From positions 467,084 to 531,083 of the forward strand of contig CAVTBL010000003.1 of NCBI GenBank assembly GCA_963732945.1: 64,000 bases of DNA, written 5' to 3'. Position 1 is the stretch's first letter; the number at the start of each line of letters is the position of its first letter. A program made the position numbers and the translations under genes. The notes under the pieces are model-generated. The model was not told the DNA's origin and made no database searches. It was given only the letters and a program-made list of their open reading frames with translations. Positions 10,822 to 43,580 of this stretch are shown here, piece by piece. Source of the stretch: an uncultured Chloroflexia bacterium. GTDB lineage: Bacteria > Chloroflexota > Dehalococcoidia > DSTF01 > WHTK01.

Positions 10822-12076
10822 ATGCCGTCTCCTGACGCCGGCGCCGAGCTGGTCGCGCGCCTCGAGCGTCACGTCTCGCCGCCCGCGCTCGCGGCCCTGC
10901 GCGCCGCCGAAGCAATCTGCCGCGATCGAGGCATCGGGCTGTTCCTGGTCGGCGGTACGGTGCGCGATCTCGTGCTCGAGCGCGAAGGCTTCGACATCGA
11001 TTCTCTCGATCGAAGCCGAGGTCGAACCGGTCGCCCGTGCCCTCGCCGAGGCGACCGGCGGACGCACCGTCCTGCATCCGAGCTTCGGTACCGCCAAGGT
11101 CTCGGGCCGCGACTTTCAGCTCGACCTCGCCCGAACCCGTCGCGAGACCTACGCTCATCCCGGCGCGCTGCCCGCCGTCGAGCCCGCCACTCTGGCCGAG
11201 GACCTGGCGCGCCGCGACTTCACGATTAACGCGATCGCCCTGCGTTTGGCCCCGGAGGCGGGAGAGATCGTCGACCCGTATCGTGGCATGGACGACATCG
11301 CGGACGGGCTGCTGCGCGTCCTGCACGAGCGCAGCTTCCAGGACGACGCCACGCGTATCCTGCGCGCCCTGCGCTACGCCTCGCGACTCGGTTTCAAGCT
11401 CGCGCGCCAGACCGAGGCGCTGGTCCGGCGCGACCTCTCGTACCTGCGCAGCCTTAGCGGCCCGCGCATCCGTCGCGACCTTGCGCTGCTGTTCGACGAT
11501 ACGGGCGCTGTCGAGGGCACGCTGCTGGGTCAGCGCCTCGGCGTGCTCGAGGCGATTCATCCCGCCCTGCGCCTCAGCGACGCCGTCGCGGGCCGCTGGC
11601 GCGACGCAATCGCCGGCCCGACGCTGGCCCCGCGTGACGAGCTCGGCTTCTGCCTGATCGCCGACCCGCGCGACGAAGGTACCGCAGCCTCGGTGTCGCA
11701 GTGGCTGCACCTCACGGGCCGCGTGCAGCACGCCCTCGAGCACCTCGTGCGCCTGCGCGAGCGTTCGGCGGAGGTCGCAGGCCTGCGATCCAGCCCCGTG
11801 GAAGCCGTCGACCTGCTGGACCACGTTGCGCCCGCCGCGATCTGGGCCCTGGCGCTGCTCGCGGCGGGCGACGTGGCCGAGACCTGCTTCGCCTACCTGC
11901 GCGAGTGGCGTCACGTGCGCCCAGAGCTCAGCGGCAGCGACCTGCTGGCGCTGGGCATGGCGCCCGGCATGCAGGTCGGCGAGACGCTGCGCCGCCTGCG
12001 CTACGAACGCCTCGACGGCCGCGTTACGAGTCGCGAGCAGGAGGTAGCTATCGTGCGAGAAGCGCTCGGCGGTTAG
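10822..12076 (+). pseudogene. cca: CCA-adding enzyme / tRNA nucleotidyltransferase, frame broken near 11001 (net +1)
   Basis: The N-terminal part (MPSPDAGAELV...LFLVGGTVRDLVLEREGFDID) is in the frame of ORF 10750. The rest (LSIEAEVEPVARALAEA...RRDFTINAIAL...) is in the frame of ORF 10664. Junction at GAC ATC GAT [t] CTC TCG ATC GAA. Confidence 0.8.
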
Positions 12077-12088
12077 GATGAAGGCAAC

Positions 12089-12472
12089 ATGCCAGCGAAA
12101 CGCCGACAACCCAAAGACAAGACCAACCTCGAGTGGGACTTTTTCTCGTTCCCCGTCCTGTTCGCGCTGAGCTTCGGTCTCCTCCTGGGCCTCCTGCTCT
12201 ATCCGCTGGGGGTCCTGCTCCAGCCGCTGGGGCTCATTTCCTTCGTCGCCGCTCTCTTTGGCACCTCCTATTGCACGGCGCACGTAATCAGCAACTGGGT
12301 GTCGAACCGTAAAGACAGGAAGAGCCGCGAAAAGCAGGACGAAGACGAGCGCGAGCGTCGTGCCCTAGCCGCGCGTGCGGCCCGCGCCGAGGCCTCGGCC
12401 GTCGCGGCAGCTAACGCCGAACCGCGGGAGCCGCGCCTGCCCCGCAAACGCCGACGCCGCAGCCGCAGCTAA
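12089..12472 (+). CDS. Hypothetical membrane protein with a highly charged C-terminal tail
   Basis: 127-aa ORF with two hydrophobic segments followed by a Lys/Arg/Glu-rich tail. No family recognised. Confidence 0.5.
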   Translation: MPAKRRQPKDKTNLEWDFFSFPVLFALSFGLLLGLLLYPLGVLLQPLGLISFVAALFGTSYCTAHVISNWVSNRKDRKSREKQDEDERERRALAARAARAEASAVAAANAEPREPRLPRKRRRRSRS

Positions 12473-12515
12473 CGACTGAGCCGATCGCAATTTCACAGAT
12501 TGCGTTTCGCCATGC

Positions 12516-12545
12516 TTGACATGCAACCAAATAGTTGCCTAACAT
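12516..12545 (+). promoter_or_regulatory. Candidate promoter with embedded ArsR-type operator
   Basis: TTGACA, 18 nt, TAACAT. The spacer contains the palindrome GCAAC-caaata-GTTGC. Confidence 0.5.
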
Positions 12546-12557
12546 CCGTAACGGCAA

Positions 12558-40771: not shown

Positions 40772-40898
40772 GATGCGCCACCGAAGTCTCTGCCGTTTCG
40801 TTGCCAGTTAGCCGGTATGCCCGTTTGCTCGAATCTTGCCGTCATGCTCACTCCCGGCGCTCAGCTTAAGCAGCGAACGGAGCGAGCATCAAGCGCCC

Positions 40899-42521
40899 TC
40901 ACGCATCGTTGCGGAACACGATGTGGCGTCGCCAGGATTCCTGCGTCTCCGGGAAGTCGGTGCGGTAGTGGGCGCCGCGGCTCTCCTGCCGGATCAACGC
41001 GGCCTCCGTCGTAAGCCGGCCCGCGACCAGCAGGTTCGCCAGCTCCTGCGACGGACGGTCCGCGGGCGCCGGCGCCGATCGCTGCCACATCGCCAGGGTC
41101 AGCGCCGCCTCAGCCAGCCCTGCGCCGTCCCGCATGATACCGACCTTATCCCACATCAGCGTCTGCAGGTTCACGAGGCTCAGCGCCGCCTCAGCGAACG
41201 GTAGCGCCCTTGCCGGCGCACCGATGCGCGGCAGCGCCACGCCCTCGGGCCGGTAGATACCGGCGCGACGCCCTTCCTCCAGCGTGTCGGGCAGCCGGCG
41301 CGCCCCGATCAGCGGCGGCGTCGGGTGGTGCTCAGGGTCGAGCGTGCGGCCGATCACGCGCTTCGCAAACACGACCGTCTCGAGCAGCGAGTTGCTCGCC
41401 AGCCGGTTGGCGCCGTGTACGCCGGTGCACGCGGTCTCACCCGCGGCGTAGAGGTTGCGGATGTTGGTCTCGCCCCAGGCGTTGGTGCGCACGCCGCCCA
41501 TCATGTAGTGAGCCGCCGGCGACACCGGGATGCGCTCCTTCGTTATGTCGAGGCCGTGCTGGGCGCAGTAGCGCATGATCTGCGGGAATCGTGCCGCCGT
41601 GCGCTCGGGCGGCAGTCCGGTCACGTCCAGCAGCACGTGGTCCGAATCGGTGCGCACCATCTCCGACACGATCGCCCTGGCGACGATGTCGCGCGGCGCC
41701 AGCTCGGCGCGCTCGTCGTAGCCCGGCATGAAGCGCTCGCCGTCGACGTTGACCAGCAAGGCCCCTTCGCCACGCACCGCTTCAGAGATCAGGAAGACCG
41801 GTACGCCGGGCAGGCGCAGCGCCGTCGGGTGGAACTGGATGAACTCCATATCGGTGATTTCGGCGCCGGCGCGATAGCCCAGCGCCACGCCGTCGGCCGT
41901 GGCGACCTGCGGGTTCGTGCTCACGCGGTAGAGCTGGCCGCAGCCGCCCGTCGCCAGGATCAGATGCTTGCAGGCGAACTCGTAGCGCTCGTTGCTGCGC
42001 GCGTCCAATGCGATCACGCCGACAGCCGCGCCGTCCTGGACGATGAGGTCCTGAGCCTGCGCGTACTCGAGGATCGTCACGCGCGAGTGCTGCGCGACCT
42101 CGCTCAGCGTCAGCTCGATGTGCGCACCGGTCGAGTCGCCGCCGGCGTGCAGGATGCGGGCCCGGCTATGCGCCCCTTCGCGCCCCAGCGCTACCTCGCC
42201 GTCGACGCTGTCGAACGGCACGCCGAAGCGTACGAGGTCGGCGATGCGGTCGGCGGCCTCGCTGGTCAGGATACGCGCCGCCTCCGGGTCGACGAGGCCC
42301 GCGCCGGCAACGATCGTGTCGTCGTAATGCAGCTCGGCGCTGTCGTCGGTGCCAACCGCCGCCGCGATGCCGCCCTGGGCGTACTTCGTGTTGCACTCGT
42401 CGATGCTGCTCTTGGTCAGCACCAGCACTTCGCCGTGATCGGCGGCCATGAGGGCCGCGTACAGCCCGGCAATCCCGGAGCCGACCACGATATAGTCGTA
42501 ATTTCGCGCCACGTCATTCAT
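40899..42521 (-). CDS. nadB: L-aspartate oxidase
   Basis: 540 aa with an FAD-binding N-terminus (VVGSGIAGL) and RGAHYR. Intact. Confidence 0.95.
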   Translation of the reverse strand: MNDVARNYDYIVVGSGIAGLYAALMAADHGEVLVLTKSSIDECNTKYAQGGIAAAVGTDDSAELHYDDTIVAGAGLVDPEAARILTSEAADRIADLVRFGVPFDSVDGEVALGREGAHSRARILHAGGDSTGAHIELTLSEVAQHSRVTILEYAQAQDLIVQDGAAVGVIALDARSNERYEFACKHLILATGGCGQLYRVSTNPQVATADGVALGYRAGAEITDMEFIQFHPTALRLPGVPVFLISEAVRGEGALLVNVDGERFMPGYDERAELAPRDIVARAIVSEMVRTDSDHVLLDVTGLPPERTAARFPQIMRYCAQHGLDITKERIPVSPAAHYMMGGVRTNAWGETNIRNLYAAGETACTGVHGANRLASNSLLETVVFAKRVIGRTLDPEHHPTPPLIGARRLPDTLEEGRRAGIYRPEGVALPRIGAPARALPFAEAALSLVNLQTLMWDKVGIMRDGAGLAEAALTLAMWQRSAPAPADRPSQELANLLVAGRLTTEAALIRQESRGAHYRTDFPETQESWRRHIVFRNDA

Positions 42522-42530
42522 CCTGATGAC

Positions 42531-42551
42531 TTAGTGTCGCAATGACACTAA
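42531..42551. promoter_or_regulatory. Palindrome immediately upstream of nadB (candidate NAD-regulon operator or RBS-proximal hairpin)
   Basis: TTAGTGTC-gcaat-GACACTAA with 8-bp perfect arms, 10-30 nt upstream of the nadB ATG. Confidence 0.4.
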
Positions 42552-42619
42552 CTAGGCCAGATCCTACGCCCGGCCCCCAACACTGTCAAACCAGACGCCC
42601 TGCGAATAGGATAAGGACG

Positions 42620-43580
42620 ATGCCCTGGTCACAACCTTCAACGGATCGCATACGCGAAGTGTTACGTCTTTGTGCCCCGCAGCTCGCGCACGAGCCCATC
42701 GCCTTTCTCGCCGAGGGCTGGGAGTTCTGGGCCTACATCGCCGGCGACCACGTCCTGCGCTTCCCCAAGGCCGATCGCGGCTTCGTCTGGAAGTTGGGCG
42801 ATCAGAGTAGCGCCGATTCGCTGCGCATCGAGCGCGCCCTCACGCCCGAGCTGGCGCCGCGCCTCTCAACCGTCGATTCCAGTAACGGACGTCTACTGCG
42901 GCTCCGGCCCCAACGAGGCGCCGTTCGCAGGGCATCGCTTCCTCCCCGGCGAAATCGTCATGTACGCGTCGCGTAAGCCATCCCCGGGCTTCGGCCGCGA
43001 CCTGGGGCGCCTGATCCGCGAACTGCACTCGTTCCCGACGCAGCGGGCGGCGGAGCTCGGCGTGCCCTATTTCGACGGGCCGAAACTACGCGCCGACCGC
43101 GCCGCGCACTACGAAGCCGTGATCCGACGCGCCTTCCCGCTCATTGCCTGCGAAGCCCGCTCCCATGTCGAGCACGGACTTACGAGGCCTATCTCAACGA
43201 CGACGCCAGCTTCGACTTCGAGCCCGTGCTCGTGCACTCAGACATCGCCGTCAACGCCCTGCTCGACCCGCGAATCCGGAAACCTCTGCGGCCTCATCGA
43301 CTTCGGCGACGCCGCCGTCTCCAGCCCGGCACTTGACCTCTGGCTGCCGGTCTACGGCTTCGACCAGCTCGGAATCGCCGGCCAGCGCTCGGAGTTTCTG
43401 GCCCAAGCCGGCGTCACAGAAGCCGAGTTGAACCGCATGGCTCGCGAGCTCGCCTTCATCGACCTGCGCTACCCGCTGATCGGCATCCTGCACGGCCTCG
43501 CCACCGGCGACGACGACTGCGTAACCGAAGCGATCGTCGAGCTCAACGCGCTCGTCCCCCACGACTTGCGCTGCGTGTAG
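42620..43580 (+). pseudogene. Aminoglycoside/phosphotransferase (APH) family protein with three frame breaks
   Basis: The pieces are MPWSQPSTDRIREVL...ELAPRL, QPSIPVTDVYCGSGPNEAPFAGHRFLPGE...ARSHVE, YLNDDASFDFEPVLVHSDIAVNALLDP and ESGNLCGLIDFGDAAVSSPALDLW.... Breaks near 42866 (+1), 43174 (-1 or +2) and 43271 (+1). Confidence 0.8.

Follow-up and report, generated by a model that had tools for sequence, protein, structure and literature searches.

Fifteen surplus bases at 14 places break the reading frames of nine genes in a 64-kb window of a metagenome contig (the window is the whole stretch of 64,000 nucleotides that was analysed). Judged by sequence comparison, these breaks are very probably consensus insertion errors of what is presumably an error-prone long-read metagenome assembly of a Dehalococcoidia-like bacterium, and not broken or recoded genes. 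The original prediction had also favoured assembly insertion errors, and that reading is supported by the lack of conservation of the breaks in close relatives, by a different set of breaks in a sister contig and by purifying selection in the repaired frames.

Placement and type of the breaks

The window was aligned at the nucleotide level with three relatives, L161, L162 and L163. All 14 breaks were found, each at most 11 nt from the coordinate first proposed for it, and the surplus bases specific to the window (for 42876, see below) stand at 11001, 12779, 12955, 13001, 13080, 19341, 19990, 23949, 24168, 32407, 40314, 42876, 43173 (2 nt) and 43270. Frame switches were also seen in tblastn with syntenic intact orthologs, at 11001/11003, 19335, 19988, 23947 and 24147-24188. 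When the window DNA was searched with Pfam, with stop codons masked as X, the profile coordinates divided cleanly between frames at the breaks in cca, nadC, ispE and the 2-hydroxyacid dehydrogenase gene. The genes affected number nine and not ten as first counted: cca, arsR, the SRPBCC gene, a membrane protein gene, ispE, the 2-hydroxyacid dehydrogenase gene, a second membrane protein gene, nadC and the APH gene.

Thirteen of the events are +1, as had been claimed, but the one exception, at 43173, had been read as a deletion and is in fact a +2 insertion. Both relatives lack the 'GC' at this site, and once repaired the APH protein (318 aa) matches homologs of 317-318 aa over an ungapped alignment. 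The 15 surplus bases are therefore insertions throughout, and there is no deletion. A codon-usage Viterbi scan of the whole 64-kb window gave no frameshift beyond the 14. Positions 35236 (acpS/nnr), 52093, 53975 (ada-like/ogt), 54600 and 60636 were considered as extra frameshifts and rejected as normal gene boundaries. A probable further surplus G lies at 32910, in non-coding sequence upstream of the DUF5679 gene; it is a single-base insertion present in the window only when compared with L162 and L163, and there the reading frame cannot polarise it.

The broken genes

Four of the genes lie on the plus strand. In cca, which encodes the CCA-adding enzyme, the surplus base is at 11001..11002 (GA[T]TCTC, with the surplus base in brackets here and below); the N-terminal 60 codons occupy 10822-11001 and the remainder 11003-12076, and the Pfam PolyA_pol profile is divided over two frames, as positions 1-22 and 23-126. 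The frame changes relative to intact orthologs at five other loci, and a gap appears against L161. The arsR-family regulator (12558 to about 12883) has a surplus T at 12779 (GG[T]CGAG), which is a single-base gap in the alignment with L161, where ArsR is intact at 107 aa; homologs read on as '...NPVPI.EIYERWIGKYE'. Three +1 insertions, at 12955, 13001 and 13080, fall in the SRPBCC/AHSA1 gene (12869-13351). Their net +3 keeps the 160-codon ORF open with 42 codons garbled, and all three appear as gaps in the alignment with L161, where the protein of 159 aa is unbroken; the repaired protein has 87% identity to each of two homologs (P0005 and P0006). Most database homologs are fusions, so we considered arsR and the SRPBCC gene as a single fused gene with a fifth frameshift, and rejected this because the closest relatives have separate 107- and 159-aa proteins with the same 14-nt overlap. 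The APH-family phosphotransferase gene (42620-43580) has breaks at 42876 (+1), 43173-43174 (+2) and 43270 (+1), seen in tblastn with the APH protein of L163 and as gaps against L162 and L163.

The other five genes are on the minus strand. A small membrane protein gene (19149-19572) has a +1 insertion at 19341, where tblastn changes frame at 19333-19337 with orthologs at six loci, L161 among them, and the alignment with L161 has a gap. The insertion in ispE (19573 to about 20488) is at 19990 (coding strand GCG[A]TTG): the GHMP_kinases_N domain stops at the break, orthologs switch frame at 19988/19989, and L161 again shows a gap. For the D-2-hydroxyacid dehydrogenase gene (23292 to about 24270), with two +1 insertions at 23949 and 24168, the Pfam 2-Hacid_dh domains are spread over three frames and the L002 ortholog matches frames -1/-2/-3; both insertions are gaps against L162, where the gene call is 326 aa, and they are backed by L084, L087 and L162. 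In the second small membrane protein gene (about 32215-32620), broken at 32407 (+1, coding strand GA[A]TCC), the ORF of L162 is intact at 133 aa and contains '...FGRPDPLKTARTYLRLG', a peptide that the window spreads over two frames. Finally, nadC (39901-40765) has a +1 insertion at 40314 (coding strand CG[G]TCTG compared with CGCCTG in relatives). Pfam QRPTase_C positions 1-40 and 39-169 lie in two frames, the gap is identical against L162 and L163, and tblastn with the intact 286-aa NadC of L163 switches frame at 40307-40311.

Comparison with relatives

L161 and L162 belong to one sister contig (ERZ25039495 contig_322, 533 kb) with a DNA identity to the window of 88-90%, and it lacks the surplus base at 13 of the 14 sites. 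In L163, L001, L002 and several metagenome contigs, the ORFs are intact wherever the gene is carried. The sister contig in turn carries at least 11 frameshifts at places where the window is intact, in the genes for YYY/DUF2298, cca, M20 peptidase, DinG-like helicase, ispE, rsmA, APH, nadC, AAA_33 kinase, a Zn-ribbon protein and RidA; these are about 9-10 +1 insertions and two deletions in G runs, and its gene calls are shortened or split to match. Our automated cross-locus frameshift caller reports spurious mirror images of an event whenever the ORF used as query is broken but remains open, and therefore only events with several independent supporting loci were trusted. By this rule no frameshift was found in L163, L164, L165, L001 and L002 (74 kb); all but one of the apparent events there mirror breaks of the window or the sister contig, and the exception has one supporting locus. 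Scans of genome and metagenome contigs with the DinG-like protein gave no same-species contig among the matches listed, the best having 74-82% protein identity. Exact-protein searches with two ORFs of the window (M20 peptidase and NadB) and with its own APH call (P0279) matched no record. No second assembly of the population turned up in these searches, a point against the artefact reading.

Selection on the repaired frames

The repaired frame, and not the deposited sequence, is the one that shows purifying selection. For the segments downstream of the breaks, dN/dS in the repaired frame is 0.123 (666 codons) and 0.115 (490 codons), compared with 4.2 for the same segments in the unrepaired frame and 0.03-0.12 for intact neighbour genes. 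Values of individual segments range over 0.04-0.3, except for one 20-codon APH segment at 0.41, and neither in-frame stops nor other decay were found in the repaired frames.

Clustering and sequence context

The original prediction saw the clustering and the intact long genes as arguments against uniform random error. The clustering is real and significant: the 14 events occupy a span of 32.3 kb in the 64-kb window (P = 0.001), and 6 of the 13 spacings are below 300 nt (P = 3e-5 over the window and 1e-3 within the span). This fits a locally poor consensus, not biology; three +1 events within 125 nt of one gene, and +1, +2 and +1 within 400 nt of another, would not be a product of selection. 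The longest genes were said to be spared, and they are indeed intact in the window, but the effect is not significant (7 clusters, P = 0.21) and the YYY and DinG-like genes are broken in the sister contig.

The surplus bases are a mixture of T, G, A and C, which does not bear out the frequent extra C on the coding strand that had been reported, while the reported absence of long homopolymers holds, as the longest run including an inserted base is 3. In 8 of the 14 events the inserted base is unlike both neighbours. Their position mostly outside homopolymers, unlike usual Nanopore errors, counts against an artefact.

At 7 of the 14 sites the surplus base stands 5' of CG on the plus strand (P = 0.0016, uncorrected and post hoc). 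This bias tracks the plus strand of the contig and not the coding strand; in the sister contig about 3 of 10 events have it, by our own count from the alignments. Two other patterns, GANTC or TCGA near the sites and retention of both SNP alleles side by side at the third codon position, were suggestive by eye (not computed) and not significant. For the latter, random insertions would touch the third position in two thirds of cases, and at 88% identity a flanking base that matches the relative is to be expected; 11-12 of the 14 surplus bases touch that position, which by our own calculation does not differ significantly from the expected two thirds (P ~0.1). Intervals holding an event differ from the sister contig slightly more than the others do (P = 0.018).

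Alternative explanations

The insertions could be real and very recent mutations that made nine fresh pseudogenes through a mutator episode or relaxed selection, and this we regard as very unlikely. The bases do stand in the deposited sequence, they cluster as patches of error-prone repair might, and the intervals holding them show the slight excess of divergence given above; against this, the housekeeping genes cca, ispE and nadC are among those broken, and the repaired-frame dN/dS of 0.12, free of stops or secondary decay, is far from the values toward 1 expected under relaxed selection. Genome decay should also give mixed indels, whereas all 15 bases are inserted, and the sister contig has like damage elsewhere while the cleaner assemblies of relatives have none. 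Restoration of the proteins in vivo, by programmed +1 ribosomal frameshifting, quadruplet decoding or transcriptional slippage, is practically negligible as an explanation. Bacterial prfB is an example of programmed +1 ribosomal frameshifting, where the mRNA can carry a slippery or stall motif such as CUU UGA C preceded by an SD-like element. The window resembles such systems in that nearly all its shifts are +1 and precede a functional, conserved downstream frame, and APH codon 85 is broken in two genomes; unlike them, its sites are not conserved between orthologs (13 of 14 are missing from the 88-90% identical relative and all 14 from other orthologs) and share no motif, with neither a stop nor a rare codon where the frame shifts. 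No two of the four-base 'codons' are alike (GGTC, ACGC, GTAG, GCGA, TTTC, CGGT, GTCG, CCGC and others), and a search of the 14 sites found no common slippery or stall mRNA motif, no in-frame stop after the site and no long homopolymeric A/T run for transcriptional slippage. One event is +2, some genes have several shifts (one short gene has three), and the only context bias, that 5' of CG, ignores the coding strand.

The APH gene needs separate treatment, as its +1 at 42876 (codon 85) is the sole site of the 14 common to the window and L162. One surplus base lies within the same 4 nt in both contigs (GTCG and CGCG) despite diverged flanking codons, and L163 and all full-length homologs lack it. 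This pattern speaks for a mixed case, in which most breaks are artefacts and the codon-85 insertion is genuine, having arisen before the window organism and the sister contig parted from their common ancestor. We nevertheless consider the mixed case highly improbable: between the two genomes APH is under purifying selection on both sides of the site (dN/dS 0.065 upstream and 0.08-0.2 downstream), which is unexpected if the gene had been broken ever since the two diverged (dS ~0.3-0.5), and APH has two further window-specific breaks and one further sister-specific break. These further breaks suggest that APH is a region prone to error in both assemblies. It is extremely improbable that the codon-85 insertion is real and tolerated or decoded, which would make it a recoding site conserved in a phosphotransferase gene of Dehalococcoidia. 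The base is common to genomes 12% apart and the frame downstream of it is under purifying selection. The break common to both contigs is also counted against an artefact, with a random error model giving about 0.02-0.05.

Assembly error as the preferred reading

We thus infer a sequencing or assembly cause. The window comes from a 605,578-bp metagenome-assembled contig of a Dehalococcoidia-like Chloroflexota bacterium, whose consensus would retain uncorrected insertions of single bases. Consensus building or polishing probably left the 15 surplus bases at their 14 places, within patches about 100-650 nt long of locally poor quality, possibly through low effective coverage, strain mixture or context-dependent miscalls. 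A further point for this reading is that the damage reaches single-copy housekeeping genes (cca, ispE and nadC).

Indels left in the consensus of long-read assemblies and MAGs are known to cause frameshifted gene calls, a problem addressed by the IDEEL test and by tools such as proovframe, and the errors usually described for Nanopore consensus sequences are homopolymer indels (PMC9262707). As with such Nanopore or PacBio CLR indels, the single-base events of the window split or truncate conserved genes, are missing from relatives and cleaner assemblies, and lie on a very long contig with a sister contig damaged alike at other positions. Unlike the common Nanopore signature, they are all insertions and mostly outside homopolymers, and their strong local clustering calls for something more to explain it, for instance a coverage dip or strain mixture. 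Collapse of nearby allelic variants can create indel errors, as in the collapsed assembly of Trypanosoma brucei (PMC8445201). There too apparent frameshifts arise in intact genes and cluster where variants are dense, and the event regions of the window are slightly more divergent; a difference is that the surplus bases of the window show no significant excess at third codon positions.

Consequences for annotation

The gene calls of the contig are misleading. The cca gene is called as a 470-aa ORF that is partly in the wrong frame, the window's own APH call on the 605,578-bp contig is a 206-aa fragment, and nadC, ispE and the dehydrogenase gene are split. Wrong frames remain open at 66% GC, and frameshifts therefore hide inside intact-looking ORFs. 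Polishing or frame correction of this contig and of ERZ25039495 contig_322 should precede any claim on metabolism or pseudogenes. In the organism, the frames of the real cca, arsR, SRPBCC, ispE, 2-hydroxyacid dehydrogenase, nadC and APH genes, and of the genes for the two small membrane proteins, most likely run through unbroken. The almost certain integrity of the genes there leaves the breaks with a biological significance near nil, and their practical weight lies in annotation.

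Position of the frame breaks

The GC content of the window is 62-70% along its length (~66% overall), and its gene content and gene order agree with those of uncultured Dehalococcoidia (Chloroflexota) MAGs. Among the matches listed, those closest to its DinG-like helicase in genomes and metagenomes share 74-82% identity. Window 2829-45680 aligns collinearly, at 88-90% nucleotide identity, with a sister contig, ENA ERZ25039495 contig_322 (533 kb, examined as pieces L161 and L162). The protein database contains the window's own APH gene call, located on a contig of 605,578 bp.

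In three-frame translations of the window, conserved peptides switch frame at every predicted site, and Pfam profile coordinates run on across frames (PolyA_pol 1-22 and 23-126; QRPTase_C 1-40 and 39-169); the 2-Hacid_dh domain is spread over three frames and GHMP_kinases_N stops at its break. With intact syntenic orthologs from the related contigs L001, L002 and L015 and several metagenome contigs as tblastn queries, frame switches were located at 11001/11003, 19335, 19988, 23947 and ~24170. Base-level alignment against L161, L162 and another related contig, L163, placed surplus bases specific to the window at 11001, 12779, 12955, 13001, 13080, 19341, 19990, 23949, 24168, 32407, 40314, 42876, 43173-43174 and 43270, i.e. 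15 surplus bases with no deletions. The original prediction is thus confirmed in position, all its coordinates lying no more than 11 nt from an aligned surplus base, and in placing the sites outside long homopolymers (longest run 3). It needs correction in three details. The number of genes hit is nine rather than ten (cca, arsR, SRPBCC, two small membrane proteins, ispE, the 2-hydroxyacid dehydrogenase, nadC and APH); the inserted bases are a mixture in which C, said to be frequent, does not predominate; and the event near 43174, read as a missing base, is a 2-nt insertion, since the 'GC' at 43173-43174 is absent from both relatives and APH without it is a 318-aa protein aligning gap-free with homologs of 317-318 aa.

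A six-frame Viterbi scan of the window by codon usage confined within-gene frame switches to the predicted sites, with the arsR/SRPBCC stretch scored as non-coding. Other switches in the scan were rejected as extra frameshifts because they are ordinary gene boundaries. Outside any reading frame, upstream of a 46-aa DUF5679 gene, position 32910 carries an extra G relative to both L162 and L163, which is probably another insertion error.

Comparison with related contigs

Of the 14 window breaks, 13 have no equivalent in the sister contig. In L163 both APH (318 aa) and NadC (286 aa) are full-length, and L001 and L002 carry intact copies of cca, ispE, the membrane protein and the dehydrogenase. 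No frameshift backed by multiple independent loci was found in L163, L164, L165, L001 and L002 (74 kb together). Conversely, at least 11 frameshifts are present in the sister contig alone, at places that are unbroken in the window; about 9-10 are +1 insertions and two are G-run deletions. They lie in L161 1-20480 and L162 1-21518 and affect YYY/DUF2298, cca, M20 peptidase, DinG-like helicase, ispE, rsmA, APH, nadC, the AAA_33 kinase, a Zn-ribbon gene and RidA, so that gene calls are shortened or split (helicase 741 aa vs 947 in the window; nadC 228+62; AAA_33 93+83; APH 205). In cca, just 31 nt separate the insertion of the window from that of the sister contig.

Selection on the repaired frames was evaluated from pooled segments downstream of the breaks. 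With the surplus bases removed, dN/dS is 0.123 and 0.115, compared with 4.2 for the same segments as deposited and 0.03-0.12 for intact neighbouring genes. The repaired frames contain no accumulated stops or other lesions.

One break is common to both contigs. At APH codon 85 (window 42873-42876; L162 ~2898-2903), each contig has a +1 break within the same 4 nt, which read GTCG in the window and CGCG in the sister, with differing neighbouring codons; neither L163 nor any full-length homolog has the surplus base. The simplest reading is a shared error hot spot, because each contig has additional, distinct breaks in APH, and the gene stays under purifying selection. A genuine ancestral change is less likely.

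Distribution of the events

The predicted clustering was borne out: within the 64-kb window, all 14 events fall inside a span of 32.3 kb (P = 0.001), and six of the 13 spacings measure less than 300 nt (P = 3e-5 for the whole window, 1e-3 within the span). Long genes are indeed intact in the window as predicted, yet the avoidance of their 12.7 kb is unremarkable (P = 0.21 with 7 clusters as units), and in the sister contig breaks do fall in long genes, YYY/DUF2298 and the DinG-like gene. Clustering on this local scale suggests that the consensus is poor in patches, through a depth dip or strain mixture. Sub-windows that contain events show slightly higher divergence from the sister contig (P = 0.018). 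The surplus base lies directly 5' of CG on the contig + strand in 7 of 14 cases regardless of gene strand (P = 0.0016, post hoc), a hint of context-dependent error rather than an mRNA-level effect, to which we give little weight because only ~3 of 10 sister-contig events, by our count, share this context.

Other features of the window

The bacterial large SRP RNA (189.6 bits, full length), tRNA-Lys(CTT), tRNA-Leu(TAG) and tRNA-Ser(GCT), at 22845-23107 (-), 25733-25930 (+) and 33077-33168 (+), look intact though inside the error-rich span. In the window (12558-13351), as in L161, separate genes with a 14-nt overlap encode the arsR-family regulator and the SRPBCC/AHSA1 protein; most database homologs instead combine both domains in one fused protein of ~243-310 aa, mostly 250-270. 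A 112-aa GIY-YIG-type ORF (39555-39893, -) separates the AAA_33 kinase gene from nadC; neither L162 nor L163 has an equivalent, the alignment breaking at 39502-39900, and the ORF may be a small lineage-specific insertion. The codon model scored the region ~5400-6060 (-) between ftsY and smc as non-coding; this region aligns with a PIN-domain toxin and PSK_trans_fac antitoxin pair annotated in L161 (2576-3225) and is likely a VapBC-like module of atypical codon usage.

Discussion

The comparative data support assembly insertion errors, the explanation originally favoured, and the surplus bases would accordingly be consensus artefacts: the breaks are not conserved, the sister damage is reciprocal, the repaired frames are under selection and the events are insertions only. 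Three +1 insertions within 125 nt of one short gene (SRPBCC), +1/+2/+1 within 400 nt of APH, and hits in cca, ispE and nadC form an insertion-only pattern that is not what mutation plus selection yields. Residual indels in long-read assemblies and MAGs are a well-documented source of frameshifted gene calls (PMC9262707), and the collapse of nearby variants to one consensus is a documented cause of indel errors (PMC8445201). The window events differ from the classic Nanopore error signature in being non-homopolymer and insertion-only.

The reading of the genes as recent real pseudogenes is contradicted by the selection on the repaired frames, the essential genes among those hit, the lack of any deletion and the reciprocal damage of the sister contig. 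Also contradicted are programmed +1 frameshifting, quadruplet decoding and transcriptional slippage: the sites are not conserved in relatives and have no common motif or A/T run, several shifts fall in single genes, and one event is +2.

The frame breaks are almost certainly no biological feature. Some of them are masked because wrong frames stay open at 66% GC: cca (10664-12076) looks like an intact 470-aa ORF with its first ~113 codons out of frame, and SRPBCC (12869-13351) like an intact 160-aa ORF although 42 of its codons are garbled. Judged by ORF length alone, such frameshifts go unnoticed, and the public record ERZ25039495 contig_322 is likewise in need of polishing.
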